Shown here: piece by piece, positions 6,876 through 64,000 of the stretch
Position numbering within the stretch: the stretch's first letter is position 1
How the letters are laid out: every line of letters starts with the position of its first letter
From: Lytechinus pictus
Taxonomy: Eukaryota
Length of the DNA: 64,000 bases
Direction: 5' to 3'
NCBI RefSeq assembly: GCF_037042905.1
Contig: NC_087251.1
Span: forward strand, 42,534,001 to 42,598,000
Translations under genes and position numbers: made by a program
The notes under the pieces: model-generated
The model's database searches: none
The model's input: the letters and a program-made list of their open reading frames with translations, nothing else
Told to the model about the DNA's origin: nothing

Positions 6876-7753
6876 ATATATATATTGAACTGCTTTGATT
6901 GTCTACTATGCCTATGCCGGTCATAATGGAGTAATTTCTCTTCCTATCTTGACACTCTGGGTAAGAGAGAAAACTGCAAAATAACTGGTATGTTGGATAT
7001 CCGTACACAAAATTATATCCATTATCTATTGGCACGTTATAGTTCACACAGTAGAACGATTTAGTAAAATCAGCTGTAGCCTAGACATACGCATACAGTT
7101 CAAAGGTTCAGCACGACCTTCAAGTAAAATGTTAAAAGTTAAAACAGATAATGATCAAGATATGATCCTTTGACGTTATCTCATCAATGTGACCTGCAAT
7201 TCGGAATCTATATTCATTTAGCAGCAAACGAATCAGAACTATGGTCTTGCTAGCATGCAACTATTGATGATATGACTTGAGTTGATGGTTTGGCCAGCTC
7301 TACGCCGAATTCTTTAATCATTTAACAGGTAAGTCACTTGGATGTTTGAATTTGTCATTTTTCAGCTTCTGCAATGCCTTATCATGCTTATGCAACCATG
7401 ATGAATTATTGGAGGGGTTTTGGAAGGCGAGTATCCTGGCAATGATGCCAAATCCAAAGGAATATCTGGTAGATCACGAATAGGAGTGATCAAGTGGTTA
7501 CTTTCTTAAGGATCGTAACAATACAAATGAAATTTTACATATACTAGGCGTATGAACACTACGAACATTTACGGATTACACAAATCGCAAAATACCCTTC
7601 TATTTGCCATGTCACAATAAACATCACCATAACAGATCATCGCATATATTTCATTATGATCAACTAACAATCGTCAATATTAAGATACCGGTAATCATTA
7701 TTTCGAAGCGTTATAACCGGTCATTTCATTTAATGTTTTTGGTTATACATGAG

Positions 7754-9007
7754 TCATTTTAACTTCAACGCCTTTTCTTGTTGCTTCCGTTCTTTTTTGT
7801 ATTCATTCTTTGCTACTTTGATGGCATCTTTTAACCGATCGTACTCATCCCAATCACCCCTTTGCTTGGCAAGGTCACGGGCACGAATCATCCCATATAC
7901 TTCTTTGTCGATATCACTCTTGGAAAGTTGAGAAAACTCCTCAAATGTCAGCAACGGTGTTGACTTGTGGAGATATTTTTTATCAGGCTCATAGGCACAG
8001 TAAACCATATAATGATCACTCATAGCAATATGAGCCACTCCCGAGGACAAGACAGCAAATGGATCATCTGTGAAGACAAAATCAATCAAAGATTCTGTCG
8101 TCTGATATGTGTCCCGACCTTTCGTCTTCCTCAAATCAACCCGTGTAGAATCTTTGATCAGCTGTGACAAATGATGGTTTTTCTCAAGTTCGTCGAGCGT
8201 TTGGAGTTTCTCCCCCTTCACCGATTCCATGACTTTGCACGACGACAGAGTTTTTCTATCGCAGTTGAAATCACCTAGTATCACATAATTTGTTTTACAG
8301 CAACAAGGATACTTCTTGTTACCAGTTCCTTTGGAAGATGTCGGCTTGCAGCTATCTGTTGCCTTCAATGTATCCAAACTTCTTTGCAGCTTTTTAAAGA
8401 GGGAAACCTGATCCCTCGTTCCAGGTGGCACGTACACATTTATTATTCTCAGTAGAGTCTTCTTCAAGCATATGTTGATTTGGTCTGACCCTTTCCCTAC
8501 ACCATTACTCCCGCCAAGCTGGATATCGATGCAGCATGCATCTAATCCTTTCTCCATCTTGGTGTCACACTCTCTGACCAATCTTGAAAGACTGTCTTTC
8601 ACATATATCAAAACACCACCGCGTGGCCTACCTGTAAACTTAGGAGCCCCATCCTTCCTTGACATAATTGTGTATCCAGGAACGTTGAAACTTTCGTTTG
8701 CGTCGTTTTCACCAAGCCAGGTTTCGCTTAGGGTCATCACATCAACTGTTGCCCGACAAAGCAGAAGGAGTTTCAGCTCATCTTTCTTGTTACAAAGAGA
8801 CTGGCAGTTTAGGTGAGCAATTGTTATACCTCCTAGCTGTGACAAGATATCCAGCTCGCGCTGGACCTGGTCAACTAACTCATGTGATGTTGGTTCGATT
8901 TTTATCTGTCTTTGGTTGGAGGACTTCTCCGGGTACTTCACCTCCTCCTTGACCTTTACGGCACCCTTCATTTCTTTCGGCACCTTTTGTGATGGCGCAA
9001 CACTCGC
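7754..9007 (-). CDS. last coding exon (417 aa) of spliced gene: exonuclease-endonuclease-phosphatase (APE-like, LINE-type) domain
   Basis: Open 1254-nt frame with motifs HLNCQSL, LSETWL, RGGVLIYVK, NVYVPP, ILGDFN, LIDFVF, SDHYMV; acceptor TTTTTGCAG| at 9008, phase 0; stop at 7754. Confidence 0.85.
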   Translation of the reverse strand, partial: ASVAPSQKVPKEMKGAVKVKEEVKYPEKSSNQRQIKIEPTSHELVDQVQRELDILSQLGGITIAHLNCQSLCNKKDELKLLLLCRATVDVMTLSETWLGENDANESFNVPGYTIMSRKDGAPKFTGRPRGGVLIYVKDSLSRLVRECDTKMEKGLDACCIDIQLGGSNGVGKGSDQINICLKKTLLRIINVYVPPGTRDQVSLFKKLQRSLDTLKATDSCKPTSSKGTGNKKYPCCCKTNYVILGDFNCDRKTLSSCKVMESVKGEKLQTLDELEKNHHLSQLIKDSTRVDLRKTKGRDTYQTTESLIDFVFTDDPFAVLSSGVAHIAMSDHYMVYCAYEPDKKYLHKSTPLLTFEEFSQLSKSDIDKEVYGMIRARDLAKQRGDWDEYDRLKDAIKVAKNEYKKERKQQEKALKLK

Positions 9008-9489
9008 CTGCAAAAATCAAACGTCAAGAAGTCGATTAAACAAATTAGTAAAAGATACCACTTTTTCAAGAAAGATTTTGAAAGGCATTAGAAGAAACAT
9101 CAACAGCAACGTAAAGTAAAAAAATTGGTATCTTTTTAAATACATGAAATAATTAAGCGGCCAACGAATCATTGCTTTTGACAAGTTTGAGTAATTGTTG
9201 ATTGTCCTTGCTGCAACAATGGGTGATTTCAAGTTCAGTGTAGACCTTTTGGTGTAGGTGTTAGGTCAATTTTTACACGATTATAACACCAAACATAAAA
9301 TGAAGATGGTCCCGAAAAGTCACTCAATAGTTGTTAAGATGTAAATAATGTGATCTGGATCAGTTTTACAAACTTTGAATAAGTTTTGGAGCTAGGGGAA
9401 GCAATCTAAAATTTCAACACAAACACCAAGGCCAACACCGGACTCATAAAATCACCCAATGACATAGACCATCGATGAGGCTTCCTTCA

Positions 9490-9745
9490 TGTGATATCAT
9501 TATCGTCACCATCGCCATCATCAGCATCCTCATCATAATCATCATCGCCATGCACTATCATCAATATCAATATAATCATCATTATCATCATCATCATTAT
9601 CATCACCACCATTCTAATTATCCTAATCATCAAGAGTAAAATTATTATCATCATGATCATAATTATAATTTAAATCACTATCATCATGATCATCATCATG
9701 ATCATCATCACCATCATCATCATCATCATCATCACCACCACCACA
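9490..9745. repeat. (CAT)n degenerate microsatellite, intronic
   Basis: Read directly. Confidence 0.85.
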
Positions 9746-9787
9746 GACCACCACCAACACGGTCCCCATTACCGTTAAAACTATTAC

Positions 9788-10020
9788 CTTTTGAAGAATA
9801 ACCAAGATTCCTTGTCCATGTTGTTTCTCAAGGTCAGCGACAGTACTTCCCTTCACAAGGACGTGGACAATGATCTCCTTGGAATATCTCTGAAGCTTGG
9901 CGAACTCGATTCCAGTCTTTGCTAGCTCAGCCTTATGTTGAGGATAATGGGCTATCACCTCACAAACGAGTTGATCTATCGTCCAAGAACGATCCAAGCC
10001 TTCTTCAATAATGCAACTTC
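9788..10020 (-). CDS. middle coding exon of the EEP-domain gene
   Basis: Acceptor TTCATAATAG| (phase 1), donor AAG|GTAATA (phase 0); encodes (G)SCIIEEGLDRSWTIDQLVCEVIAHYP...GQGILVILQK, in frame with both neighbouring exons. Confidence 0.75.
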
Positions 10021-10591
10021 CTATTATGAACAAGAAATGGAAAGTGTAATTTGCAAAAAGGCTATACTACGACATCGAACTTATCCGAATGAAAAAGAAT
10101 GTATTGAAAAGCCGCTGATTATTTTAATGATTTCTTAAAAGCTGTAAATATGATTGTAATCAATAATAATTATCGAATTATCGGCCAGTTAGTTTGACAT
10201 GTATTGTCTGTAAGGTACTTGAATCTTTGATAAGAAAAGTTTTCATGGAACATTTCTATAGAAATGCACTCCTTTCTCCTCATCAACATGGATTTGTTGT
10301 GGGTAAGTCATGGACCACACATTTGTTGGAAGTCATTGATGAATGGACTCGAGTATTAGATGATGGCGGCACATTATTGATGCCATCTACATGGATTTTA
10401 TGAAGGCTTTTGATACTGTGCCACACCAAAGATTACTGACAAAGCTAGAGGCATATGGTATTCGAGGACATGTCCATGGGTGGATCAAGGTCTTTTTTCT
10501 TGGGCGAAGGGTCAGGAGTCGAACTGGTGTGAAGTCTCAAGTGGTATTCCTCAGGGTAATGTGCTCGGTCCCTGTCTGTTCTTGGCATACA

Positions 10592-11169
10592 TTGAAGGAC
10601 AAGCTCACCCCAACAAAAAGTTGATTTGAATAAAAAGAGGAACATCCAACAAGCATAACACTGAAAATTTCATAATTTCGCTTAATTTCACAAAACAGCA
10701 CATGCAGGTCGGTATGCAAATGAGGAGACTGATGACGTCATCCACTCACTATTTCATTTGTATCTTATTATATGAAATAAGAAATATTCTAATTTTCTCC
10801 ACATCGACAAGTGAAACAGAGAATATATGATCCCTCTCTGAACGTGTTGAATTATTATTGTTTAATATTATATGGTTTAGTCAAGTTGGTCCTTATTGTC
10901 AAATCTGTAAAAAATGAAATATGGTATAATTCAAACAATAAAAAAACACAAAAGAAATAGTGAGTGAGGGACATCATCAACTGTCCCATTTGCATGTCAC
11001 TGAGTTGTGTATATCACTGTTTTGCGAATAATAAGCGAAAGTTTAAAATGTCATAACTTTCTTATTTTACATCCGATTTTCTCCCCCTGAAAATTTTCAG
11101 CGTTATGCTCGTTTGATTTTTCTCGATTTATTCAAATCAACATTTTTCTGGGGTGGACTTGACCTTTAA
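10592..11169. mobile_element. TTAA-targeting (Kolobok-like) non-autonomous element inside the CR1
   Basis: TTGA|AGGACAAGCTCACCCC ... GGGGTGGACTTGACCT|TTAA; splits the RT between the PQG and ADD motifs. Confidence 0.75.
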
Positions 11170-11950
11170 TGATCTTCCCAATACAATGCAATCAAATATC
11201 AAGCTTTTTGCGGATGATACAAAGCTTTATGCCCGCTCGGATCTACCTGCAGGTCTTGTCAGCAACTTCAGAATGACCTGTCACTGTTAGAAAGCTGAGC
11301 TGAGAAATGGCAACTTCGCTTCCACCCAGACAAGTGTACTATTTTGAAAGTTGGTCGTATGCAGTCTGCATTTGAATATCACATAGGTAAAGAAGATGAC
11401 TCTGAACTTCTTAGTGACAGTCAGGTAGAGAGGGACTTGGGTGTACTACTTGATGCACGACTCGATCACCTTCAAAGACCACATCTCACAAGCTGTCTCT
11501 AAATCAAATAAATTGCTGGGTTTAATGAGGAGGTCTTTTGTAAATTTGGATGAAGATACAGTGAAGCTTATGTGTAAAGGTCTAATACGTCCCGCGTTAT
11601 TATGGCCGTTCAGTTTGGTCACCTTTTACAATAGGTGATCAGAAACGGCTAGAGAGTGTACAGCGAAGAGCAACCAAGCTAATACCTCGACTGAGGAACT
11701 TGTCCTATTCAGAGCGACTGCAACACTTAATTGAAACTACCATCTCTTCTACATAGACGTAGAAGAGGAGATATGATAGATGTGTAAGTATAGGCATTAT
11801 GGTATCTATGACTAGCATAGATCTGCTGGTACGAAGTAAGGAAGGGAGGACTAGAAGCCATTCCCAGAAACTTGAGAAGCAGTATGCAAGGCTTGCATGA
11901 TGTAAGGAAGTTCTTCTTTAATTTCAAATCGAGTTATAAGTTCTTGGAGC

Positions 11951-13662
11951 CACTGGTGTAAATCCGTGTTGATGGCTGGGGGGGATGACTGAAATATTTT
12001 GGCTTTTTTTTTGCAATCATGTTTTTAGATATGCAAGGAATTGTCATTGATATGTCCACAGTGGCGTACCGTGGGTCACGGCATTGGGGAGGGGGCACCA
12101 GCAAAATGTTTGAATCACTGAGTGAGCGCGCTCAGTTGCCAGTTATACTGACCTAATAGAGACACTTTCTGGACAATGTCATTAAACGGATATGCATCTC
12201 ACTGATCAAATAATGCGAGCGCGAAGCGCGAGCTGATTTTTTTTTATATTCACACCTAAAAAGAGACATTATAATCAAATTTGTGTAATCATGATAGGTA
12301 CCTGTCTCGCTAAACAATACGAGCGCGAAGCGCGAGCTGAAGTTTTCGTATATTTTTACCCCAAACAGCGAGATTTTGAGGAATATATTTTAGGAATCCA
12401 TTAAGAGTATGCATATCTCACCATAGTCATCTAATGCGAGTGCCAAGCGCTTGCTGGTTTATAAAAATTACATCTGAACACATGAAACACTTTTTGTAGT
12501 CATTGCAATGATTATCATACGCATCTCATTAATCAAATATTGCGAGCGCGAAGCGCGAGCTGAAAATTTAGACAATTCAGACCTGAAGTGGGGCATTCTA
12601 AGGTTTCTTTGTAGGAATTAACTAGGACCATACGTATTTCAATATCCAAATGATGCGAGCGCGAAGCGCGAGCTGAAAATTTTTGATATTCAGATCAGAA
12701 GAAGGGACATTTTAAGGACTGATTATAGGAATTCATGAAGAGCAGACATATCTCACCAATCCACTTATGCAAACGTAATCAAGGACAGGAAATGTTTCAT
12801 ATATACGAAGACCTTAACATGGGGCAATCACTTTTTGAGTCATGAAAAAGAAACATATGTCACTACATAAAACAATGATAACTCAAGTGCTAGGAAATGT
12901 ATTTGGTTTATATTGACTTGAAAACGGGATGTTTCAGTACAACAAGATTATATATATCGTTAACAGACAATGCAAGCACCAGGAACAATGAAGACGTAGG
13001 CCCTGGGCAAATTATGTTTCATGAAGTTATGATAAAAATATATCTTATGTAATGTAACATAACATAATTATAATATAACATTATAATGAATAATATTTTC
13101 TTCTTTCCCACTATACGCTTCTCTTCCTATCTCCCTCTTTTCTCCTTTTCCCCTTTTTCCCGGTTTTTTTTTTGGTCAGCCGATGGGGGGGGGGCATGTG
13201 CCCCCATCCCCCCCCCCCCCGTAGTCACGCCACTGTATGTACATATGGCAAATACCCCTCCAAAATTATTATCTTTTTTACCCCATGATTGTTTAATGGT
13301 TTTATTAGAGATTACATTAAAAAAGAATTTACATTCCATCTTAGTCCCTTCCCAAAGACCCCAACATTGATGAATTGGAAGAAACGGGAGTTTCTCTTCA
13401 ATGTTATAATAAGGACATAAGTATTTCGTTTGGAAATGGTGAACTGGCTCTTTATTTGCATTTTATGATTCAATAATATTGTTTTGTTTTTTAAGCGGTA
13501 TTTCAGGAAGAATTTTCACCAATAAAACAATTATCTCTTGTGATTTTTTTTCATTTCTTTCGTAAAAAGTGGGGGGGGGGCTGTTTGTACAGGCCATCCC
13601 CCCCTCCTCGAAAAGTGGGGGGGGGATATATCCCCCCATCCCCCCCGGGATTTACGCCAGTG
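11951..13662. mobile_element. hAT-like non-autonomous element
   Basis: TIR CACTGGTGTAAATCC / GGATTTACGCCAGTG; perfect 8-bp TSD CTTGGAGC (11943-11950, 13663-13670). Confidence 0.85.
12059..13235. mobile_element. hAT-like element nested in 11951-13662, with ~110-bp degenerate units containing GCGAGCGCGAAGCGCGAGC
   Basis: TIR CAGTGGCGT / ACGCCACTG; TSD TATGTCCA / TATGTACA (7/8). Confidence 0.8.
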
Positions 13663-15665
13663 CTTGGAGCAGTCTACCAGAAATGTAGATTCATCACCTT
13701 CTGTAAATTCCTTTAAAGAATCGGCTTGATAATCACTGGAAGGATATTGCTTTTGTGTACGACTATGAGTAATGAATTTTATATCGTACCACATGCCACT
13801 TCTAAATCTCCAACATGTCCAAAGCTACCGGGGGCTCTGCCCCATACCCCACGCAGTAGGGGCTCTTCATCTGTAACCTTCAAAGGGCTCTATAACGCCC
13901 CCTGTATGGACCCTTCCTACATTAAGCTTTACGTTCAATCACTGGCTTACGGGGGGTCTTGGTTCCACACCGAAGGGAAAATAAAGATAATAGGCAATTA
14001 CGAAATGAGATGAATGGAAAACAATGAAATATTTTATTTGCTTAATATAAAGTGAAAATCTATCAAATAATTAGAAATTCATTTCAAAAGGCCATTCTTT
14101 CGGGCTAGCTTCCCTCGCTGGCGACTTTTTACAAATTTTCCCACATTATTATGTTGTGACCCCTCAAAATATTTGTTTCATTACGTAACTGCGTTTAATT
14201 AATGTGTTGTGTAAAAGATATATAGGCCTACTGTATATCTGCAATTTGATTAATAATAGCGACAATATGTAAGGTTTAAAATGGCTTTGATATCAAAGCA
14301 TAGCACTAGCGGTTTGGCCATGGCCCCAAAAGTTCTACAACCAAGAAAAAAAAAGGAGGAAAGAAAAGTAAAGAAAAAGTGCAAGATATGATGTTAGGGC
14401 CTATTTACTGAATATAATGTCCTAAATGTCTCAAAAAGATTCTCATAAAAAATGTTTTTTTCTCGCTCGCCCGGGACTTTTATTACGTCGCTCAATAGGG
14501 ACTTTTATTACACAGATTTTTAGTACTGTGCACTACTTTTTTTTTACTCTTCACGCTACCGCCGCATAGATCATCGCGCAAAATGGAATCCTGTTCACTG
14601 TGGCGTACAGACAAAAAAAAGGAAGAGAAGGGTGATAAATTATATCATTTTCTGAATACTATTTTAGTATTTCAAAATCTGTAACAAAAGTTGATTTCTG
14701 TAATAGAAATGACAAAATTTTTGCTCGCTCGCAACTTTTTTTGGGAATAAATTCTGCCCGATATGCCATATCTGGCCCCCTGAATTTGTTTGCCTCATTG
14801 CAAAGCTGCATGTTCATACCATGATTATGACCGGGAAATGTTTCGTTACGCCCCTGCTCCAATTGTTCTTTCCTCTTCCTCCCTCCCCCCCCCCTTTTTT
14901 TTTTTTTTGGGGGGGGGGGAGAGGGGGTCCAGTACGTGCTCACATCCCCATCTATGCGCCATCTTAAGTGCATACTTATTTACTAGTCTGCTGTTCAAAC
15001 CCTTCACTCGAGTTAAGGGTCTGAATGTGCAGCCTACTCTTGCCTTATTTACTGAAGGCCCTCTCGCTCAGGATGGAAACAGCAAGTTTTATGTGTGCTA
15101 GTCTTTGCGTGGATCTGGAGACACACTTGCTGATCAAAGTTTCAATCAGGGTCTGTGTCTGCAGACTAAACATCAAGTTTTGAATATGCTAGTATTTGCG
15201 TGGAGACACACCTGCTGATCAAAGTTTCAATCTGGGTCTGTGCCTGCAGACTACTTATTTACCTTGATAAGAACTTCATGATACATGTAGTAATGGTGAT
15301 GATGGTGATAATGATGATAATAATGATAATAACAATAAACACTAATGATGATATTGATAACAATGATGATGATGATGATGATAATAATACGATTTTCTAT
15401 AGCTCAGCCACTTTAAAAATATACTCGTCCGTCATGTGTTTTGATGCAAAATAACATACTATAGCAGTAATATAATTTTTTTGGGGGGAATTCGGTACTT
15501 CTCAGGCCAACATATATCCAGGAAATTCCACCGGGTCAATGATCGAAACCACCCCCTCCCCCCCTTTTTTTTTTTTTTGCTAGCTAATCGATATCATACA
15601 TGTTTACAAGTATAGACCTATATATACTGTAGGTCCTACATTCTTGGACTATGCATAAAACTCAC

Positions 15666-15786
15666 CATATCCTCTGTGTTCCAAGTCATTCTGAGATTCC
15701 TTATTTGGATATGAAATACTGACATAGGTGTTCGGGAGTAGAAATATCGCCTTGGGTTTCCAATGCGTGCCCTTTCCATGGGCCAT
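15666..15786 (-). CDS. first coding exon of the EEP-domain gene
   Basis: CAAT-ATG-G start; MAHGKGTHWKPKAIFLLPNTYVSISYPNKESQNDLEHRGY(G); donor G|GTGAGT at 15665, phase 1, matching the acceptor at 10020; in-frame TGA ~95 nt upstream. Confidence 0.65.
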
Positions 15787-17104
15787 ATTGAGATTCACAC
15801 AACACAGTGATTCACAATACAGTGATTCTGTCCCGGGATTCTGACAAGTTTTTTTATTATGTTTGGACGCCCACGAATATCAGGAACTCCCTGCGAATAT
15901 CAAACAGAAAGTGCAGGTCCGTGCACAAACATACCCACAATGTACACAGCTTTATACCATCTCTAAAATGATATAAGCAGCTAGTACAAGTTGACAATAT
16001 TTCCTGCCAAACTTGTTTTTCCTCAATTGAAGTGGGCGGAGTCCTGTATCTAACATTGCGCAACAGGGGGCCTATATACCGTGTCTTGTATTTCCGGATG
16101 CCATGCAGTGCTTCGATTTCATGACTTTATTGCCTTGTATGTAAATTGAAATATACGGCACCAAAACCCATATTATATTACAGGCCTACATGCAAGATCG
16201 CTCCCAATGTCAGTTGGATAGTTCAAGTTTCAAGTTTCAAAATTTATTGATCAAAATCCACACATAATGGATCGATCATTCTCAATTTTACAAACAAACA
16301 CTTATGTTGCTTATATTGACAATTACAGTGAGACACAAAGTTACAAATCAAATATACAAATATATAAATAAATATAAATACGAAATGCAGAGAGAGAGAT
16401 ATAGAGAGAGAAATATAGAGGGCCCCTTACAGATAGCAGTTATAGAAACATTAAAAATACTGAGGTCACATTCTTGAAAAATTATGGTTAACAATTTTCA
16501 TGTTGAACCCTAAAACATATTCGATACGTATTCAAATCAATAATTGACCTCTTATAGCATAGGTAAAATTATATGGTTTTTTTGGCACGATTTTTAAATA
16601 TGTAAATTATACTAAGCTCAAATCAAATTAAATATATTTTAATAAAACAGCCTATCAAAAGGATGATAATTATCACGGGTGGGAGGAGTGAGAGTCTGCA
16701 GTGCGGGGCAGGAGCCCCATCACATCCCTAAATAAAATAAAGGTTGCAAAGGAAAAATGTTTTTCAATTTTAAGACTCGGAAATAAACAGAAATATCGTA
16801 GTTAAATCGTTTATAATACTGGTTGACGCTCAAATGGTATAATAATTCAAAATAACTAAGATTTGCTGATGAATATTTGAAGAGGAACAACAATGACGTA
16901 GCATAATTTCATTATAGTGACACCGTAGGAAGCTTGGAGAGAAAAGTAACATAATAACAATAATGACAACTAAGCCTTTACCAGACTAACAGCAAAATCT
17001 AAAGGTTTAGTTTTTATCTCTTATCCCTATTCAGGTGAAAAACAAATATGGTTAAGGGTGATTATGAAGTCATTACTTATTATTTTCTAAAAGCTCCAGA
17101 CGTT

Positions 17105-26974: not shown

Positions 26975-27940
26975 TTAATTGACGGGGTACAAGTCTGTGG
27001 CAATCTGTGTCCACAAATGAAAGAGTGGACTTGCCGAAAAGCGCTGTGACCACATGAACTCACAAAGGTAGTCGCCTATCATGGCTCTGTTGGTTGGACC
27101 TTGTTGTGCCTTGAACTTCGCCTTCGCTCTCTGCCACATTGACTCGACTCTGTTGGTAGTCACACCGGTGTTCGGATCAACGAAGTTGAGTGTGTGGTTT
27201 ACCACCCCGTGTTGGTATTGTCCCGGCAAGTTTGGTAGGTTGTTGTATGCTCTCCACATATCGGTCCAGATAATGCTGCCGGGTGCCACCCATTGTTGGA
27301 TGATGGGCAGCAGGGTAGCCGCGTCCCGCTGCTGGACTTCGACCAGAAAGCCTATCTTGCGGGCAGGTTCGTAGCCACCGAGGACCCACTTTTCTGGTCG
27401 GGCGCGTCCTACGTTGTTTTTCCTTCTCGCAAAAAGAGACTCATCAATCTCAACTAGGACACCCGGACCCCCGATCTGCTGCTGGTGGTTTTGGAAGTAC
27501 TGGACGCAGATGTCGCGAAAAAACTGCATCCAGTCCACCGTCGTTTTGTTCGAGACTCCAACTTCCTTCATGATGATGTCCTGAGGCAGCCCTCGAGCAC
27601 GACCGCAGTTGGTTGACCATACGTAGGAAAGGGCAACTATCTGCCAGAGTTGAAGATGGCTCCTTTCAAAGAAGCTGTCCTTTCTGATGTTCACCGTCTT
27701 CCGACAGGGATTTGCGCAACGCCATGTGATGCCATCAACGGCCCTGTTATATGCCCCTTCCCGACATGGACGACCGCAGGTAGGACAGTCCATATGTGTT
27801 GCAAGAAGTCCATGGTTTCGGCACCAGAGAACCATGCCGTCGATGTCATATTTGAATCTATGACCAATCTCGGTCAGACTGATTCCCTCAAACTCTGCCT
27901 GGTCAGGCAAATTGCCGCCCTGAGGCTGAGCAGCAGCCAT
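26975..27940 (-). CDS. Merlin transposase (ISXO2/IS1595-like DDE), 321 aa, intronless
   Basis: N-terminal Cys zinc ribbon (CPTC...WRC..C), HTH-like region, catalytic VEIDES, IWTDMWRAY, NH..NFVDP.TG..TNRVESMW; uninterrupted frame. Confidence 0.93.
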   Translation of the reverse strand: MAAAQPQGGNLPDQAEFEGISLTEIGHRFKYDIDGMVLWCRNHGLLATHMDCPTCGRPCREGAYNRAVDGITWRCANPCRKTVNIRKDSFFERSHLQLWQIVALSYVWSTNCGRARGLPQDIIMKEVGVSNKTTVDWMQFFRDICVQYFQNHQQQIGGPGVLVEIDESLFARRKNNVGRARPEKWVLGGYEPARKIGFLVEVQQRDAATLLPIIQQWVAPGSIIWTDMWRAYNNLPNLPGQYQHGVVNHTLNFVDPNTGVTTNRVESMWQRAKAKFKAQQGPTNRAMIGDYLCEFMWSQRFSASPLFHLWTQIATDLYPVN

Positions 27941-28053
27941 GATAAAAATTCAACTCGAGTTTTGACGCCAAAGATGTTTGGTCAACGACTGATCTGACAC
28001 TGGGTTTTCTCGAGGGTTTTTATTTGGAAGTGGGGGGGGGGGGGGTCATTTTT

Positions 28054-28524
28054 ATCATTCATCTTTGGAGTTTCTCTGATGATAACATTTTTGCCGCAAT
28101 CAAAAGGTATCCCGCTTCATTCTCACGCCCCTGGGGGCCACTCTATATACAACGCTGTAACCACGCGCGTGCACAAATACGCGGAATAAGTGGCATTTTT
28201 TCGGGCAGGATCATTCATCTTTGGAGTTTCTCTGATGATAACATTTTTGCCGCAATCAAAAGGTATCCCGCTTCATTCTCACGCTCCTGGGGGCCACTCT
28301 ATATACAACGCTGTAACCACGCGCGTGCACAAATACGCGGAATAAGTGGCATTTTTTCGGGCAGGATCATTCATCTTTGGAGTTTCTCTGATGATAACAT
28401 TTTTGCCGCAATCAAAAGGTATCCCGCTTCATTCTCACGCCCCTGGGGGCCACTCTATATACAACGCTGTAACCACGCGCGTGCACAAATACGCGGAATA
28501 AGTGGCATTTTTTCGGGCAGGATC
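28054..28524. repeat. three near-identical 156-bp tandem units upstream of the transposase
   Basis: Units start at 28054, 28210, 28366; one substitution noticed (CCC/CTC) in unit 2. Confidence 0.95.
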
Positions 28525-29539
28525 CCTTTAAGGGTATCAAAATCGCTCATTTAAGAGAAAAGGGTTTTTCAGAGCAAATTCCGCGCTAAGGGTTATCTTT
28601 TCCCTATCTGAAGCAAAATAAAAATGTTCCTATATAATTGATAATTAAAAGTGATTTTCACTCCTTTTTCACTGACTTACAATTTATATACGGTCGCATC
28701 ATATATATCTATATTTTTTACAACAATGCAAATTCTTCTATAGTTCTATCATGCAAAGTTTTTAGGTACTATGTAGAAACAATTTTACCGTGCACAAGGT
28801 TGGGGGGGGGGGGGGTGAGGGCGAAGATAGTAGCTTTATCGGTGGGAGCAAAGCATTTTTTTCCTTCTTAGCTTCAGTGGGTCCTTTCCAAAGATATAAA
28901 AAGTAATATAGGCACTAGAATGTAATAATGTTGTACTATAACGATCTGTAAAGAGCTGTGCCCAAAATGCAAACTTTCTATATACCAAAATGTAAAATGT
29001 CTCACTCGGTCTCTACGCTACCTCACATAGTAATATAATATTATGAAGTGCCCCTTTTGGACCCCCTCACAAGTAGAATACCAAAGTAAAATGTATAAAA
29101 ATTGAAGGAAATAATGTGCTTTCACGACAGGGGGAGGGGAATTAGGGGCATGGTTTCCAGGTTATCTGCAGGGAGTAAGGGTCGATACATATCGGAGCTA
29201 CATTTTGGGGATTCTTTGAGATGACCCACCCCCACCCCCATGCGCGTATCCAGTATTTTATACCCCTGGGGGCCCGACCAGATTTTGGGCGCCCTTAGGT
29301 AAAATTTGGAAAATGCCGCCCCCCCCCCCCCACATGCATGATCAAAGTAAACTATATCTCGACACATTTTGTTCAAATTATAAAAAGATTTAACCCTAAA
29401 AAGGCAGAGTGATGTTTGTTTGGTTTTTATTTTCGGGGGGGGGGGGTGTTCTCAGACATGGAGCGACAAACTGTTCTGAAACTTGGCATGTAGTGTACAT
29501 AGAACATTATATATTAAATAAACCTATAAGGTCAAACGT

Positions 29540-33680: not shown

Positions 33681-33809
33681 ATGGCCCAATCAACATCCCA
33701 GAAACATAGAGACTTTGTGGCAGAGCCAATGGGAGAGAAATCGGTGCAGGAAATGGCTGGCATCGGACCTGCCATTGGTGGTAGACTTAGTGAGAAAGGC
33801 TTTGATAAG
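33681..33809 (+). CDS. BANF1: barrier-to-autointegration factor, coding exon 1 (43 codons)
   Basis: [43 protein letters not shown] matches the BAF N-terminus; upstream acceptor polypyrimidine+TAG at 33650; donor AAG|GTAACA. Confidence 0.96.
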
Positions 33810-35408
33810 GTAACAATAAATTTGTGATTTTTATAGAAGAATGGGGACTAGGGTAATTTAAACAGAATGAAGGTGCTGCAATAGTGACACAGTATTGGTT
33901 ACATGTACTTTAACTGCAGATTTGTAACATTTATTTTATTTTATTTGAATACAAAACATGGAAACTTTAGACATGACAAAATACAACACAGTCTTCATGC
34001 AGCATAGTTCTACTGTATATTCTGCACTGTCTAATTTATCAACCCACTTCAACCATCGAGAATCTAACTTGGAAATTCTCTGATCTGACCAGGGAAATCT
34101 CCATGATCTAACCAAATCACAACCTTAAGCATTATCAGAAGGGCAGGAAATGTAACACCAGTGCTTGACAGTCAATTCCAAGTTTGATAATGAGAAATGC
34201 ATACTGATGGAAATAATAGCTTAGTTCATGCCTGTTTCATGCCCGATTCAAACAGCTGCATTCTTGTTCTTATTACTATATTTATTATTAAGTTACTGAG
34301 GTTTAATTGATTTACCTAGTTTTAATTTTTTTAAATGTCAATTTCCACTGGTATGATAACATGCTAACAACAATGCAGAAATACAGTGTACAGTAGTGAA
34401 GTAAATTTGGAATGGTCTGAAATGCACCACTGTTACATAATTAGAGAATATGTATTCAAAACCACTAAGTGTTGCCAATGAAATTTTCAAAGAATTTAGA
34501 AAATGAAATGAGCTCTCTAATTATGTGGTCGCTGTATCAAAGCCCCATGTTAGCAAAGTCATGAGGATATAACGAGTTGCAGCTAAACATAAGTTTTTGT
34601 TGGAAGGCAACAATTTTAAAAATTATTTTAAGAAATTAACATAAAAATAATTATTACATAGTTACATCGGTTAACCTATGGCATCATATATTATGTCTCC
34701 ATGGCCCATAATCTGAAGTCAGGTCTAACTCTGTGTTAAAATTATGGGAAGCCAAAAATTGAATACGGTAAATGCATTTACAAAATCTATTTCATATCTT
34801 TACTTGACACTTTCCACATTTTTAATGGTAAAGAGAACTATTTCAAAAATAATTTGTTCCAGTCTCTTATTGTATGATTTGAGTATCGAATGAGCTGACA
34901 AACTGAACTTAGACTGCAAGAGATACCTGTCACAATTTGCTATCCATAGTTTAACAACAACTTTAGACCAGAGTTTGAATTCAACTCAAGTTTAGAATGC
35001 AGGCTCATGAGTTTTTCTTTGCAGCTATGGACAGTTCTGCGATTTGGAGCTGTGAGGCACTTTCATAAGCATGGGTGGGATGATTTTTCTCCCTGTGTAA
35101 AAAGCTATGAAAAATGTTGTCAAGCCTTATCATGTCTGAAAGACCTTTTTCTCTGTTCAAATCAAATCAGTATGTTGTTAGGGTGTCACGCACACAGTAC
35201 TTGTCATTTCATACATAGTTATTTTCTATGACTTTGAGTGATTTTTTGTCTTTATGATAACCATCTTTATTCACCACTTCTCTCTTCTGTGGTTTTTCCA
35301 TCTTTTTCTCCCTCATTCCTTTTATTTTCCCCCTTTCACTCTCTCTTTCTTGTACTGTCTCTTTCTCTCTCCTTTTCTTTCCCTCTTTTCCTTCCCCTTT
35401 CATTACAG

Positions 35409-35555
35409 GCCTATGTTATCCTTGGGCAGTTCTTGGTCCTAAAGAAAGACGAAGAACTATTCATTGATTGGCTGAAGGACGAAGGAGGAGCCAACAAGAA
35501 ACAGGCGGGAGATTGCTATAATTGTTTGAAGGATTGGTGCGATGCCTTTTTGTGA
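35409..35555 (+). CDS. BANF1: barrier-to-autointegration factor, coding exon 2 (48 aa + stop)
   Basis: [48 protein letters not shown]; long polypyrimidine tract + CAG acceptor, phase 0. Confidence 0.96.
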
Positions 35556-50806: not shown

Positions 50807-52162
50807 AATAACGTTTCTTTCTCATGTTTTATATTGCTATTATACCAGATAATTTCTTGGTTTATATCGCAAACATTAAACATGTGAATATACTTTATTT
50901 CAGACCACGATCTAAAAAGGTCAATGTAAAACACAGGTCATTGTTTTCTTTTGCATATTCTTATTATATCATTTTTTGGCAATAAAATCTCAAACACATA
51001 GGAATGTCAGAAATTTTACTGATCCAATAATTGAATAAAATTTTCCATGGTTTTTTCACCTGAGATATATTTTTGAATCCATGATAAACGAAGAGAAAAA
51101 CATTTGTAAAGTAAATTGACCATTCTAAGGCCTCCTTCTATTTCAGAATTACAGCATACATTACGTTTGACCTTTTCAGCTTTGGAATTCCATAAAAAAG
51201 AGTATATTAATCTATTTACCAATTTAATTATTTTCAATGGTACTGGGACTGCTGTGGCTGTATATACTAATTGAGAAGTGACTAAATGCTTTATGACAGT
51301 CACCTTCCTATACAATGTTAGTTTTCGCATTTTCCATAAATCTGAAGTTCTTTTTATTTTCTTCACTTTACCTTCCCAATTTAAGTTTTCAACTTCTCTA
51401 TGAAATTTTCAAACATAAACCCCAATACATTTTATAGCATTTTCTGTAAATTCTAATTCCTCAGTGTTTTGGACATTGATATTTAATCTCATGAACTTAG
51501 ATTTTGACCAATTAATTTTGGGACCAGCATTTTTACCAAAGTTTACTACTTCTCTCATTATTTCTTAAACAGAGTTGACAGAATCGGCAAAAATTGTAGT
51601 ATCATCTGCACACTGAACTATACGAATATCTATGAAATCTGAACAATCTGATTCAGGGTTAGGTACTTGAATACCTCAAATTTTTTAATTTTGTTTAACT
51701 TCTGCTGCTAAACTTCTGCAAAATAATAAACAAAAGGGCAGACAATAGACATCCTTCTTACACCCCTATTAATCGAAAAAAAATTGATATCCAACCATAA
51801 CTCATTATTTTACCACTGGCGATATTATACAAAGTCTCAATCCATTTAATAAACGATTTTTTATAAAACCAAGTTCTTCTAGTAAAGTGAATAAGAAATT
51901 ATGATAAACGGTGTCAAAGGCTTTCTTAAAGTCTAATGACATAATGATACCAGGTGTCTCAGTACTTTGTCAAAAGTCAATTTTGTCCTGTACAAGTCTT
52001 ATGCATTCAGGTGCAGAACGATTTTTCATAAAACCAAACTGATCTGAAGATACAATGCAATAAATAATTTTCTTTAAACAGTCAAAACACGAGCTGCTAA
52101 TAAGAAGTGATATGGGCCGCCAATTATCTAGAAGATTTTTGTTGCCCTTTTTATAAGAGTAA

Positions 52163-53815
52163 GGCTGCGTTTATTCGACCTCAAGCCAGAATCATGATTT
52201 GAATCATGATTTGAATCACGATTCAAAACACGAACATGAATCATGATTCAAAACACAAACATGAATCACAATATCACAGAATCAGCGTTTAGACGACCTT
52301 CATTCCAATGCTGTTTCTCCTCAGATTCGGGCCAATCCAGTGCGCATCACTAGTGCGCAGTTTGACAGAGGAAGTTTTTCGCACGTGTTTCGGCTCTCGA
52401 AAAATCTTTTGCTTCCAGAATTCAGTCTATACCTCATTTTGTTTACTTCCATCATATAGGGTCCATATGCTTCTATTCATCTTGTTAGTTTTATAAAAAA
52501 TGGTGTTCGGAGGTGGATTTCAGCGTAGATCCAATTTAATATTGATACTGTATACTCAACAACAACTGAGATCATTGTCTGTCCAGTTAATTCATTTACG
52601 AGAACTTGAAGTTGCAGACATGACCAAAAAATGAAAAGTAGTGGACGATGCGATGACCAACACAGAACTTGAACATGACAAGAAATGCATGCGTAGTACA
52701 TATTCATGTACATACAGCGCCTTGAGCTTGGCAAGAGTCAAACCGAAAGTAGCCCGACACAACAGTGAGGTCATAGAATCATGATTGTAATCACGATATC
52801 GTTTATTCGAACATTTTCGTACGTGATTCTGCAGAAACGTATTTCCAAACGCCCCTTTTTTCGTGTTTCATGTTTGTGATTCTAATCATGATTATATTCA
52901 ATTTCGACTAAGCGCAATCGTGATTCTGCAGAATCATGATTTGAATCATGATTCAGATCATGATAGGCTGCGTTTATGCGACCTCAATCCAGAATCATGA
53001 TTTGAATCATGATTTGAATCATGATTCAAAACACAAACATGAATCACGATATCACAGAATCAGCGTTTAGACGACCTTCATTCCAATGCTGTTTCTCCTC
53101 AGATTCGGGCCAATCCAGTGCGCATCACTAGTGCGCAGTTTGACAGAGGAAGTTTTTCGCACGTGTTTCGGCTCTCGAAAAATCTTTTGCTTCAGAATTC
53201 AGTCTATACCTAATTTTGTTTAATTCTATCATATAGGGTCCATATGCTTCTATTCATCTTGTTAGTTTATCCAAAATGGTGTTCGGAAGTGAATTTCAGC
53301 GTAGATCCAATTTAATATTGACACTCTATACTCAACAACAACTGAGATCATTGTCTGTCCAGTTAATTCATTTACTAGAACTTGAAGTTGAAGACATGAC
53401 CAAAAAATGAAAAGTAGTGGACGATGCAATGACCAACACAGAACTTGAACATGACAAGAAATGCATGCGTAGTACATAATCATGTACATACAATGAGCAT
53501 ATAGAGAGCCTTGAGCTTGGCAAGAGTCAAACCGAAAGTAGCCCGACACTAGTGAGGTCATATAATCATGATTCAAATCACGATATCGTTTATTCGAACA
53601 TTTTCGTACGTGATTCTGCAGAAACGTCTTTCCAAACGCCCCTTTTTTCGTGTTTCATGTTTGTGATTCTAATCATGATTATATTCAATTTCGACTAAAC
53701 GCAATCGTGATTCTGCAGAATCATGATTTGAATCATGATTCAGATCATGATTCTAGGGTGAAAAAGTGGCGGATAAACGCACCCTAGGGTAAAAAAGTGG
53801 CGGATAAACGCATCC
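52163..53815. mobile_element. PIF/Harbinger-like MITE with a second copy of itself (52966-53784) nested near its right end
   Basis: TAA|GGCTGCGTTTAT ... ATAAACGCATCC|TAA; removing it rejoins LINE QAIL/TL..KKG; two ~800-bp direct copies and a doubled right end. Confidence 0.8.
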
Positions 53816-56199
53816 TAAGAATGGCTTGACTTTGAGTTGAGGACAATTGTGTTTTCTCATATCCCTGATTCAGACTGGCAACTACCATCTGTTTCAAGTC
53901 CTCCCAAAAACATTTATAAAATTCAACACTTAGGCCGTCACTACCAGGAGACTTGTTAAGATTCATTGACTTTAGTGCGAGCCAGCATTCATTTTCAGTA
54001 AGCTTTCCCTCACATATATTTGCTTCTTCATCATTCAAAACATATAACTTTAAGTTACCTATATATTCTTTAAAATCAGATCTTACATCATCTTTTTGAT
54101 ACAGTTTAGTATAGAATTCATGTATATTTGACAAAATTTTCTCATCTTCCTTAATAATCTTTCCATTAATATCAATACAGTCTATTTCTTTCTTCTTGCC
54201 TTTTGCTTTTTCAAGCTGGAAGAAATATTTAGACGATTTCTCTCCAAACTCAAGCCACATTGCTCTTTGATGTCATAAAATAAACTCAGAAATTGTCACT
54301 ACATAAACTTTGCCATGTCAACATGTCACATCCCGCCTCCGGACCTCCCCTTTTCCCTGTCTATTTCGTTTACGTATAGATGCCACCCTTGAGAAGTGTG
54401 AAAACATCAAATGCAGCTGCCTTTTCGATACAATGGCACAAATCAACAGATAGTTAAAACAAGGTGTGTTTATAGGTGCCACTGAATTCAACTCTTGCGC
54501 CAGCTGTATAAGCACCCTATTTTCCCTAGCTTAATGGAAAGTAAGAATTGCCAAAAACGTTTTGGGTATCAAACAGCAGTGGCGGACCGTGACCCGGAGG
54601 AGACAAAGCATTGGGGGGGGGGGGCACAGCATTGTTCACAGACAATACAGTGCCCCCCATCCCCCCTTGGCTACCAACGTATGTAACCAGTTATACCAAA
54701 GGAACTGACCAACCAGGTAAGTAAATCGAATAATTATTATTGTTACAACAGAGAAGTTTAGAAAATAGTAAGACGAAATTGAATACTCAACTCCACATTT
54801 TTATTGACGGCTCCAAACCGCTACCCAAAGAAAGGACAGATTTTAAAATATGTGCTCAGAAAAAGTGCTTTAGGCATTTTGTGTTAATACTGATTTACCA
54901 ATTGTTTTATGGTAATTTAGGGGTGCTGAATCCAAAAATGCTGTTTGTCAAACTTGATTCCGACGTTTTCATCCTCAAATCGGCAAAAAACAAAATGGCG
55001 GCATTTTTTTAATGCAGTTTCCCATATTAAACGATTTTTATGGGTGATTATATTTCAAAAATTGGGATCTATGCGTTATTTTTTATTCCCAGGGTTGCAA
55101 ACATAATGTGTCCGATTGATTCGTCAGCCATCTTTAATTCAAAGATGGCTGCCATGATTCACAGCTGCTGATTTGATAATATGACCAAATGTTTGATAAT
55201 TTGGGGGTGATGCTGGCATATTCACATTGCGATATCTTTAACGTGTCCGCCATTTTTTCCTCGCCTGCATAGCAGAAGCAAGACATAGACGTCGTTTTTC
55301 CGACGGCGGCGGCGAAGTCAACATCAAATCTTAACCGACGTTAAGTTTTTGATATGTCATAACTTTTAGACCTTCCAAAATGGCGTCTATAATGGACGTT
55401 GTAACTTTGAAATGGTCCACATTCATATAATATCCACCTGGTAGAAATAATTTTGGGGTCTACCGAGAATAAAATAAAACATATAAAAAAAATCGTGGTT
55501 CCAAAGGGAAAAATTACATTGGAAAAAATTCAAAGTTTATCAGTGGTGCAGTTTTGCCCCAAAAAAATGATGATGGCTTAAAAAATAGTTGCTATTTCTT
55601 AAAAATCTGGCTGCAAAGTTCATATACTATCTATCTACAATGTAGAAACATTTTTGTGTCTTTCTCATGATTTCAAGGGTCAAATGATATAGGTCAAGAC
55701 GAATTACAGGGATACACTGTTGTCCATTTTGTAGAAAAAAAATGAAGAACGCTCCAAAAATTACATTCAAATTGGCCATCATTGTTACAAAAATGACAAT
55801 ACTTCATATCCCATCTAGTGCCACTATTTTGGTGTCTCTGTTTCTAAGACTCATGAAAATATGTTTTACAAGAATTAGTGACATAATTAGATGGTGGTGC
55901 AACAATAAGTAAACATCCAAAAACAAACTTTAAAAAACAAGGTACACTTTCACCTAAAAAATTCCATAATTCAATCATAAGTATTTCAAGAAACGTCATC
56001 TTTGTGCTTAGGACTATCCTATGGTTTCATGATTAGGGGACAGCAGTAATTTTTTTACGCAATTTTAGAAGTCGCTTTGGACTTTTTTCGACGAAAAGGA
56101 AACTGACCATCCTTTTTATTTGTCCCGATTTATTATTTTAGCCTTTAAACCACAATAGTGTAGATTTTGTTTACCTAATTTTGACTATGTTTAGGTGAT

Positions 56200-61949: not shown

Positions 61950-64000
61950 TGTAAATTCAGAAGGTACAGTAGCATTTGCTAACATTGACATAATATGCCC
62001 ACAGAGTCGGTCAACATAAGCTCTACCTAAGAGTTGACTCAAGTGCAAGTACTAACACTATCACGGTACGTGCCGCCAAGGCAATATAAAGTTCAAAGTG
62101 GGAATCATTAGTGAAATAAACACCAGTAAAACTTGTAGGTTATGGTGAGATTCCAATTAAATGTAAAGGTACACTAGACATAAAATGTTACAGTCTAAAA
62201 ATGGTTAAAACAGACATTTTATGTAGCAGATGTCAAGGTTTCAGCTACCCTAGGGTTGTAAGGTTGCACTGACCTTGGAATTATCACAATTCACTCTATG
62301 CACAATTATGACACACCTACACCTAACCCCAAACAAACATCTATTACAAGTGATAAGGATCTCAAACAAGCATTTCCAGAGCAATTCGATGCTATTGGTG
62401 GTTTCAAAGGAAAAGCGATGCTTCATGTCAAGGACATCGCTAAACCTACCATAGACGCACCACGCAAGTGCAGCACACTTGAAGGACAAGATCAAGGCTG
62501 AACTGGACAAGATGGAGCAGCAAGAAGTCACCAGGAAAATCGACTACCACGCCGATTGGTGCATGACCATTGTTGTGAAGAAAGACGGTTCTATCAGAAT
62601 TTGTCTTGACCCAAGGAGGTTAACAACGCCTTGAAGAGATGCCCACACAAGGTATCAACCTTAGAGGAGGTCCAACTTACCTTTGAAGGACCGTACTTCT
62701 CCAAGTTAGACACAAAAAGGCTGGTTACTGGTCACTTCACCTGACTGAGGAATGCCAAGACCTCACCACATTCCGAACACCATCTGGAAGGTCCAAAGAT
62801 TACCATTTGGTTATGCAATAGCCAAGACATCTTCCAGCAGCACATGGATAGGATTGTCCAGAATGTGCCAGGCTGCACATGCATTGCAGATGACATAGCT
62901 ATTGTAGGGAGAACGGAGGAGGAACACGACAAGAATCTGTACTTGTTCAAGGAGACAGCAAAGCAAGAAGGCTTAGTGTTCAACAGCTCCAAGTGCACAA
63001 TCACGAAAGAAGCTTTCAACTTCTTTGGCTCCAAGTGCACTAGATCATATATCTACCCAGATCCTAGCAAGGTAGAAGCCAACACATTACCCAAGTACTA
63101 TTACCCAAGGACAAAGAGGATGTTCAGAAATGCCTAATATTGTTCAAATACCTAGCAGCATACATTCCTAATTTCTCGGAGAAGTCAGCACCACTTCGAT
63201 AACTTCTTCACAATGAAGTACCGTTCATCTGGGACGATGATCATGAACATTCCTTGAACAGCATGAAATGCGCAGTATCATCAGGTGCATGTATAAAATT
63301 CTATAACCCAGAGAAAGAGACAACTGTCGAGGTAGATGCATCAATAAAAGATCTAGGAGCATGCCTACTTCAGGAAGGTAACCTGTTGCGTTTGCATCCA
63401 AAGTCTTTCCACTGCACATTCCAACTACTCAAACATAGAGAGGGAAATCTTAGTCCTAGTGTTTGGTATCAAACGCTTCCATACATATCTGTTCGGGAAG
63501 GAATTCACAGTCATAACCAATCACAGACCACTGGAAATTATATGGAAAAATCCTCTTCGAAGTGCACCACCACATCTACAGCAATCTCTTATCAAAGTCC
63601 AAGGAAATAGGTGTCAAGTCAATTACCGACCTGGAAAAGACATGATTCTTTCCGATACGTTGAGTCGACTTTCTAATCCCAAGGAAGCATGCGATGTACC
63701 GCTAGATGTCAGAGTTAAATCCATCTGCTCTGAGGTCAAAGATTCGCATACTATGCGATCGACTTATTACTCTTCGGACAACACAAGAGGACAGAACTTC
63801 AGAGAGAAACGGCTAATGATCCAACTCTCAGATCATTATGGCAGGTAATTACTCAGGGTTGGCCTGAAACAATCCAAGAGTTACCGAAATCCATGAGGCA
63901 GTATTGGTCGTACAGAGATAACATCGGATTATCACATGGAGTTCTCTTCAAGGGAAGTCAAGTCATCGTACCGAAGTGCCTGAGGAATGATATCCTTAGA
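61950..64000 (+). mobile_element. decayed Gypsy/Ty3 LTR retrotransposon pol (protease-RT-RNase H-start of integrase), continues past window
   Basis: LRVDSSAS (protease-like), VVKKDGSIRICLDP, CIADDIAIVG, EVDASIKDLGACLLQ, NYSNIERE, ITNHRPL, YRPGKDMILSDTLSR; multiple frameshifts and stops. Confidence 0.9.

Follow-up and report, generated by a model that had tools for sequence, protein, structure and literature searches.

The question raised by this locus is whether a nuclease frame that resembles part of a long interspersed element (LINE) belongs to a retrotransposon or to the host. It arises in a 64,000-nucleotide stretch of Lytechinus pictus DNA (RefSeq assembly GCF_037042905.1, contig NC_087251.1, positions 42,534,001 to 42,598,000), hereafter the window, whose first letter is position 1. 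There, the longest of the 28 open reading frames (ORFs) of at least 110 amino acids (aa) is a minus-strand frame of 420 aa, stop to stop, at 7754..9016, the runner-up having 324 aa. In this study, we find that the frame holds the last exon of LOC129265718, a genuine, expressed, three-exon L. pictus gene of low copy number, whose product carries the catalytic residues of an EEP nuclease, has its nearest relatives among LINE endonucleases (ENs) and lacks a reverse transcriptase (RT). We consider it probable that LOC129265718 is an old domesticated LINE endonuclease gene, in which the RT has been lost and an N-terminal domain added.

The gene model is based on the following: (i) direct reading of the sequence, in which both introns are GT-AG, in phases 1, then 0; (ii) a script join of the three exons, 121 + 233 + 1254 = 1608 nt, giving 535 codons and a stop; and (iii) the joined translation, which is letter for letter the 535-aa L. 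pictus protein P0018 (XP_054759650.2, "uncharacterized protein LOC129265718"). The same three minus-strand exons, phases and 1608-nt frame had been proposed in a preliminary description of the window made from its letters alone, and are thereby borne out in full. The gene is already annotated in RefSeq, without name or function, and the four LOC identifiers looked for find no mention in the literature searched. Four sequencing runs were mapped on 7500-16000, X1 and X15 as contigs and X19 and X20 as raw RNA; X1 consists of Logan contigs, the kind of which ("RNA?") was guessed by the mapping program and is backed by empty intron bins. One X1 contig (record 4; 688 nt, depth 11.3, minus strand) spans exons 1-2-3 with 0 mismatches, as 15873-15665, 10019-9787 and 9006-8761. 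The one-base offsets are due to G/G ambiguity, and the contig reproduces the GT-AG junctions 15666/10020 and 9788/9007, at which the preliminary description had proposed to look for splicing. Exon 2 also lies within a 366-nt contig (X15 record 12), of which the flanks of the exon are not displayed, so that one three-exon contig is counted as proven. In X1 and X15, the exons are for the most part covered at depth 9-19, and the intron bins free of repeats (9488-9771, 10056-10339 and 11192-11475) stay at 0-1.5. The transcript reaches at least to 15873 at its 5' end and beyond (below) 7500 at its 3' end, since X15 record 7 extends past the end of the mapped stretch; AATAAA/ATTAAA-type signals begin at 7734 and 7318. 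The parts of the gene, all on the minus strand, are as follows.

15787..15873, minus strand: 5' untranslated region, minimum extent (X1 record 4 starts at 15873 and passes through the ATG).
15666..15786, minus strand: coding exon 1, aa 1-40 and one base, start of the N-terminal domain (ATG at 15786; 3' border ..GATATG/GTGAGT, donor at 15666/15665; N-terminus of P0018).
10021..15665, minus strand: intron 1, 5.6 kb, GT..AG, filled with repeats that stand at very high depth in X1, X15, X19 and X20.
9788..10020, minus strand: coding exon 2, aa 41-118, core of the family-specific N-terminal domain (borders TAATAG/GAAGTT...CAAAAG/GTAATA).
9008..9787, minus strand: intron 2, 780 nt, GT..AG, with GAT/GGT-type simple repeats (X1 depth 0 in 9488-9771).
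7754..9007, minus strand: coding exon 3 (TTTGCAG/GCGAGT...TGA), which contains the next four parts.
8867..9007, minus strand: start of exon 3, predicted disordered K/E/P-rich linker, aa 119-165 (structure model confidence, alignment).
7991..8836, minus strand: EEP (APE-type) nuclease domain, aa 176-457 (Pfam, alignment, Foldseek).
7757..7945, minus strand: C-terminal K/E-rich tail, predicted helical, aa 473-535 (model helices, alignment).
7754..7756, minus strand: stop codon TGA.
7500..7753, minus strand: 3' untranslated region, minimum extent, continuing below 7500 (X1 record 1, 7547-8441; X15 record 7, 7500-7768).

From N to C terminus, the protein is thus made of four parts, namely, an N-terminal domain found in this family only, a disordered linker, an EEP nuclease and a helical tail. 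With the exon-3 ORF, the top Pfam model is PF14529 ("Endonuclease-reverse transcriptase"; 36.8 bits against a cut-off of 27.4), followed by PF03372 (30.6 bits against 24.5), and P0018 scores alike. The EEP catalytic residues N185, E213, Y310, D364, N366, D427, D449 and H450 are present, in roles assigned from what is known of APE1 and L1 EN, and line up with the corresponding motifs of LINE ENs and of a cellular EEP protein. The motifs HLN, SETW, VYVPP, GDFN, PTR/STR, LID and SDH are present as well and are invariant in the nine aligned family proteins, in agreement with the earlier claim that a single exon holds the nuclease with its N, E, Y, GDFN, ID and SDH motifs intact. Structure was examined in the AlphaFold2 model of P0001, which is 95% identical to the window protein (mean predicted local distance difference test score [pLDDT], 67.4). 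In it, residues 12-117 form an alpha/beta domain (block means 66-86), and residues 121-163, a segment that is missing from the Diadema proteins, are predicted to be disordered (pLDDT below 50). The predicted EEP core follows at about 176-457, with three loops that are specific to the family and of low confidence, and the tail has predicted helices at 473-479, 486-500 and 504-534. With Foldseek, this model gave 287 PDB matches at E <= 0.001, and all of those listed are EEP enzymes at probability 1.00. The best is human L1 ORF2p (9hdr_A; E 4.5e-11, 418 columns), with L1-EN crystal chains also at the top; template modelling (TM) scores normalised to the target are 0.65-0.70 for L1-EN chains, 0.66 for TRAS1 EN and 0.55-0.65 for APE1. 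The model thus points to the EEP alpha/beta sandwich fold. Compared with LINE ENs, the nuclease bears three family-specific insertions, one of them with a conserved CxC pair.

The insertion that precedes GDFN contains an invariant C...CxC, from Lytechinus to Diadema (C338, C353 and C355; window ~8350-8297). These cysteines could form a metal site or a disulfide, in a region where model confidence is low. The tail is conserved as far as Diadema, with the pattern IxKxVxxxIxxRDxA...W[DN]xx[DE]RL. Two further Pfam matches, ATP-synt_E on the tail (22.5 bits; 20.5 in P0018) and ANAPC15 on the exon-2 ORF, where a poly-D intron is read through, were regarded as low-complexity chance matches.

If the nuclease frame belonged to a LINE ORF2, an RT would follow the EN in the same ORF. 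Here, the stop lies 85 aa past the SDH motif, Pfam finds no RVT_1 in the protein, in which the EEP models are the only significant ones, and tblastn with six LINE post-EN/RT segments finds no RT downstream of the stop, nor in the 1.5-kb flanks of the two paralogues described below. The absence of RT noted in the preliminary description thus holds by both methods. Copy number was assessed by a six-frame search of the genome (811.7 Mb) with the exon-3 protein, in which 100 of 1216 candidates were scored; all counts from this search are lower bounds. It reported 107 matches, of which 3 are close, at 100% (copy A, in the window), 77% (copy B) and 83% identity, the last over aa 169-420 only, the C-terminal half of exon 3 (copy C); the remaining matches are partial, at no more than 47% identity over ~100 aa, and many lie inside ORFs of ~1000 aa. 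The matches of copies B and C are at C7:42616830-42617996 (plus strand) and C21:14424799-14425554 (minus strand), and the two paralogues occupy C7:42616144-42617996 (L002, L023 and L024) and C21:14424799-14425992 (L003 and L022). Each of the three loci has the exon-2 peptide upstream, in copy A with two introns.

Many dispersed copies with RT downstream, which the preliminary description had named as evidence against a host gene, are thus not seen; there are at least 3 close loci, without RT in cis. Its contrast between a spliced host gene and a dispersed element is settled in favor of the former by the exon-joining contig, the small number of loci in the genome and the identical RefSeq model. 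These results bear on the proposal that the locus is a mobile or nonautonomous EN-only LINE derivative rather than a host gene. The best Pfam model is indeed PF14529, and related LINEs fill the genome. Nevertheless, we regard this proposal as barely credible in view of the three close loci of this search (A-B at 77% over exon 3, A-C at 83% over the C-terminal half), the exon-2 peptide at each of them, the lack of RT in cis, the introns that are spliced out and an architecture that is conserved between genera.

Where, then, does the nuclease come from? A hidden Markov model (HMM) of the family scores 88-113 bits against a set of LINE ORF2s from the genome (L014, L016, L005, L006, L009, L017-19 and L008) and 29-38 bits against other LINE groups, with no match at E <= 1e-3 to L1-clade ENs or to the cellular EEP protein L030. 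The top-matching LINEs carry RVT_1, a weak PHD ahead of the EN (16.6 bits) and a weak GDSL-esterase in ORF1 (25-26 bits), the last two below cut-off; a database relative, P0026, combines PHD (29.3 bits), EN and RT. In the available text of Metcalfe & Casane 2014 (PMC4120745), which cites Kapitonov & Jurka 2003, PHD and esterase modules are described as characteristic of the CR1 and L2 lineages. Searched against the PDB, the family profile matches no APE1 or L1-EN chain at E <= 1; a lone match to a beta-lactamase (E 0.43) was set aside as chance. An L1-clade element from the L. pictus genome matches human L1 ORF2p with 352 bits and APE1 with E 3e-9, and the L1-clade EN profile matched the small exons of L. 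pictus APE1 only at E 0.1 or worse. Moreover, the motifs AHLNxxS, SETWL, R(R/P)xGGV, Y(R/V)PP and SDHYM(V/I) are common to the family and the non-L1 LINE ENs and are absent in L1 ENs and L030. In a 35-row maximum-likelihood (ML) tree, the family (100/99) is sister to L014/L016 (87/85), and in a 64-row tree, it (100/100) lies inside a 55-row clade with non-L1 LINE ENs (97/96), outside which fall the 8 L1-clade rows and the cellular outgroup.

From this sequence affinity and the echinoid-only range of the family, a LINE origin of the nuclease appears quite probable, with a CR1/L2-type LINE as its somewhat likelier than even donor. The preliminary description had seen in both nuclease and tail a resemblance to CR1/L2 ENs and their EN-RT linker rather than to APE1. 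For the nuclease, this is supported by HMM, trees and motifs; for the tail and linker, the likeness is not significant alone. The tail resembles the post-EN segment of L011/L015/L016 at the expected position (IxxxIxxxIRxRx...DWxxYxRL[KR]), and homology between the two is suggestive only.

The LINE lineage closest to the gene is represented in the genome by L014, L015 and L016 (C17:19.50 Mb, C11:26.58 Mb and C16:25.85 Mb), whose ORFs measure 472-1093 aa and place a PHD-like finger before the EN. Two of these ORFs are free of stops, at 1054 and 1093 aa, so that the genome may still harbor active relatives of the presumed donor.

The range of the family adds the dimension of time. A search with the exon-3 protein found 13 proteins, and a nine-member family profile gave 47 matches, 14 of which are family, at 318 bits or more, before the score falls to 114 bits; the nonfamily matches are for the most part EN proteins of LINE type, of which many carry RVT_1 and some PHD. 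A search for longer proteins (731-2085 aa), in which 8000 candidates were scored, gave no relative at E <= 0.001. Named members are confined to echinoids: L. pictus, L. variegatus (2, with adjacent LOC numbers on one contig), Strongylocentrotus purpuratus (2), Diadema setosum (3, on one contig) and D. antillarum (2). The shared contigs in L. variegatus and D. setosum are a hint, if a slight one, of conserved synteny. Full-length relatives of 516-545 aa in Lytechinus, Strongylocentrotus and Diadema share the same plan of N-terminal domain, nuclease and tail, and 100 columns are invariant in 9/9 sequences, including all catalytic residues, T406, R407, C338, C353 and C355, with the Diadema proteins at 34-37% identity to P0001. 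The Diadema-camarodont split dates back more than 200 million years. The family thus appears, from these alignments, to have been retained intact over deep time across distantly related sea urchins. The preliminary description had argued that selection keeps this frame because every neighboring LINE is frameshifted; that argument is weak, and retention by selection is better supported by the intact relatives in Strongylocentrotus and Diadema.

Several results weigh against domestication as proposed here, at two points, the origin of the nuclease and its function. Concerning the origin, (i) an approximately unbiased (AU) test did not reject a clade of the 48 LINE-type rows that excludes the family (delta lnL 15.8, p 0.247); (ii) the ML trees have a single cellular outgroup, on a very long branch; (iii) the backbone of the 55-row clade is a polytomy, so that the trees do not single out a donor lineage; and (iv) with a tail-only HMM, the best three real matches are the L011/L015/L016 lineage but at E 0.08-0.3, compared with 0.46 for the best shuffled control. 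In a phylogeny of the kind that the preliminary description had suggested, the family groups with non-L1 LINE ENs, and a placement outside all LINE ENs is not rejected. Such a placement would suit an old cellular echinoid EEP gene that was never part of a retrotransposon and owes its likeness to LINE ENs to a shared cellular ancestor or to convergence, as would the introns, an N-terminal domain absent from the LINEs found here, the three nuclease insertions and the nonsignificant tail. We hold this to be unlikely. The ML tree sets the family with non-L1 LINE ENs apart from both L1 ENs and the cellular EEP protein, the shared motifs follow the same division, similarity to APE1 is undetectable by profile, the named members are echinoid only, and the related LINE ENs have many database records, with RT-bearing ORFs among them.

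Concerning function, the two other loci of the three in the assembly look degenerate. In copy B (LOC129265719; 405 aa), exon 2 is broken by a frameshift and a TGA, and exon 3 is open over 394 aa but reads GDLN where copy A has GDFN, and copy C (LOC129282926; 353 aa) has lost the N-terminal half of the nuclease. Paralogue ratios of nonsynonymous to synonymous change (dN/dS, NG86 method) are 0.61 for A-B (dS 0.22), 0.55 for A-C (dS 0.18) and 0.68 for B-C, with fewer nonsynonymous changes than under neutrality at p 0.006, 0.022 and 0.056, respectively (binomial), which is mild constraint only. Finally, the raw RNA runs X19 and X20, of which ~6% each was sampled, have almost zero depth over the exons (X20 shows 0.62 and 0.45 in two bins), which at that sampling says nothing firm on expression either way. 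In older RefSeq versions, the same three genes encode 535, 535 and 525 aa, with 95.0%, 96.3% and 83.0% identity to P0018; genes B and C, now damaged, were full-length there, indicating that the cluster differs between assemblies or haplotypes in L. pictus.

Taken together, the damaged copies, the paralogue dN/dS, the 4-6% protein difference from earlier RefSeq versions with the other two genes full-length there, and the near-zero raw RNA depth would fit a gene of LINE origin that has transcripts and an annotation but no function left, a slowly decaying, copy-variable relic or a noncatalytic scaffold. This we find very unlikely. Copy A is intact and spliced, and frames of 516-545 aa with 100 invariant columns have kept their catalytic residues down to 34-37% identity; neutral decay would not yield such a pattern of open catalytic frames from Lytechinus to Diadema. 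Moreover, the paralogue pairs include the damaged copies, so that their dN/dS understates the constraint on copy A, and open, motif-perfect frames across genera are stronger evidence of selection than paralogue ratios.

The N-terminal half of the story is carried by exons 1 and 2. In the genome search, the exon-2 peptide gave 4 matching pieces, all at the three loci of the gene itself, and among 1.84 billion representatives, it gave 7 matches, 5 of which are family members or fragments. The other 2, of 838 and 1628 aa, are repetitive, match over a short helical stretch and were judged spurious. The ESM Atlas returned for residues 1-120 three unnamed clusters at 0.91-0.92, which are uninformative. 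Across the genome, the 1.84 billion representatives and the ESM Atlas, the N-terminal domain thus has no relative outside the family. The preliminary description had the nuclease captured as terminal exon of a preexisting host gene; this part of its proposal finds no support, as exons 1-2 are without relative outside the family. A model of exon 2 only (77 aa; pLDDT 63.9) was compared by VIA-align, and 50 of the 50 listed entries are small alpha/beta domains, either ubiquitin-like or related to these (Atg12, TBCB/TBCE ubiquitin-like, USP7 ubiquitin-like, FERM F0/F1, PB1 and RA), at Z 4.4-5.8, below trust level. The ~105-aa domain, known solely from this family, may thus adopt a ubiquitin-like beta-grasp fold.

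We propose a model in which exon 3, the long one, derives from the EEP nuclease of a LINE of the CR1/L2 type that passed from element to host with loss of its RT. The nuclease would have been placed behind the ~105-aa N-terminal domain, with the disordered lysine-rich linker between them, in a fusion that would predate the divergence of Diadema and the camarodonts and would since have persisted as a small, turning-over gene family. The protein would be an Mg2+-dependent nuclease, nicking DNA in the manner of LINE ENs, and, its RT being lost, it would not be able to prime cDNA synthesis. The N-terminal domain, together with the basic linker and tail, may recruit the nuclease to a partner or to chromatin, and the protein would be nuclear. 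As to the biological role, a possible but rather unlikely alternative is an old echinoid nuclease for genome defense or DNA processing, acting against retroelements or foreign DNA or in programmed nicking, recruited via the ubiquitin-like domain and encoded by a copy-number-variable cluster. If so, the mild constraint between paralogues, the gain and loss of copies from one assembly to another and the coexistence with seemingly intact related LINEs would be the marks of an arms race, and this alternative also takes note that copies A and B flank BANF1, a DNA-guarding gene.

The surroundings of the domesticated endonuclease candidate comprise one further host gene and several mobile-element sequences.

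33690-33818 and 35406-35549, plus strand: BAF/BANF1, two exons (PF02961; 60.3 and 72.9 bits).
10131-10624, plus strand: frameshifted RT fragment in intron 1 (RVT_1 pieces in two frames; tblastn match 10131-10590).
51580-54266, minus strand: remnant of an L1-like LINE (matched with tblastn by an L1-clade ORF2, lowest E 7e-24).
62745-63848, plus strand: long terminal repeat (LTR)-retrotransposon pol fragment (RVT_1 and RT_RNaseH).

The two BANF1 exons are the sole BAF matches in the genome, and BANF1 is thus indeed the neighbor that the preliminary description had named. On one side of it is copy A, on the minus strand, and on the other copy B, on the plus strand and ~18 kb past the end of the window, so that the two nuclease genes flank it in opposite orientation. 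An open ORF of 324 aa at 26975-27949 (minus strand) has an ISXO2-like/IS1595 DDE transposase domain (PF12762, E 2.9e-14) and is probably, from this match, a DNA transposon gene; a tandemly repeated ORF at 27946-28554 adjoins it. Within intron 1, the repeat at 10340-11191 reaches extreme depth in 4/4 runs, up to ~76,000 in the contigs, and numerous RNA reads connect 10732 with 11032 and 10673 with 11080 across opposite strands, as would be expected of a foldback or inverted-repeat element that is transcribed and very abundant.

How does LOC129265718 compare with known nucleases of the same fold? With the ORF2 ENs of CR1/L2 LINEs bearing PHD and esterase modules, it shares fold and catalytic motifs, and these are the best genome matches; it differs from those LINEs in having no RT, no ORF1, at least 3 copies rather than hundreds, introns, an extra N-terminal domain and the three insertions. 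The EN of human L1 ORF2p (9hdr, 8uw3, 1vyb and 7n8s) provides the best structural matches and yet only 14-18% identity, without profile match at E <= 1, and the L1-clade ENs of the genome itself lie outside the clade of the family. APE1/APEX1 and ExoIII share the EEP fold and catalytic residues (Foldseek target-normalised TM 0.53-0.66) but have no profile match and lack the extra N-terminal domain and helical tail. In similarity, L1-clade ENs sit between the family and APE1. Beyond this locus, the comparison gives a likely origin and a predicted activity to a set of RefSeq "uncharacterized proteins" and opens a direct approach to the uses that a cell can make of a nicking enzyme from a retrotransposon. 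Both L. pictus and S. purpuratus are laboratory models in which gene perturbation is practicable.

Few host genes derived from the enzymatic ORF2 of LINEs are known. L1TD1 and Lyosin, described as domesticated LINE-1 ORF1 in the available text of PMC12129022, likewise retain LINE coding sequence as host exons, and terminal-exon fusion is described there for ORF1 isoforms; these are RNA-binding, nonenzymatic ORF1p proteins of vertebrates, whereas the echinoid gene would encode an enzymatic ORF2 nuclease. The closest precedent is BCNT p97 (bcntp97/CFDP2) of ruminants, a host gene that took up the endonuclease domain of an RTE-1 LINE (Iwashita et al. 2006, as reported in PMC12129022). In the portion of PMC12129022 available, it is the only ORF2-derived host gene named, its nuclease domain is described as intact with a molecular function that is not known, and the conservation of ORF2 fusions is said to remain to be worked out. 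Both cases have a LINE ORF2 EN domain without RT in a spliced host gene. They differ in donor, CR1/L2-like versus RTE-1 (in a comparison that held no RTE reference sequences), and in host, echinoids versus ruminants. Moreover, BCNT p97 is reported in the same text to have arisen from a duplicate of an identifiable host gene, BCNT, whereas the N-terminal exons of the echinoid gene have no known source, and a Pfam search of P0018 at E <= 5 gives no BCNT domain. The echinoid family is also far older and forms small multicopy clusters. If our reading is right, LOC129265718 and its relatives would represent a much older example than BCNT p97 of an ORF2 nuclease taken into host service, with its catalytic residues intact and conserved across echinoid orders.

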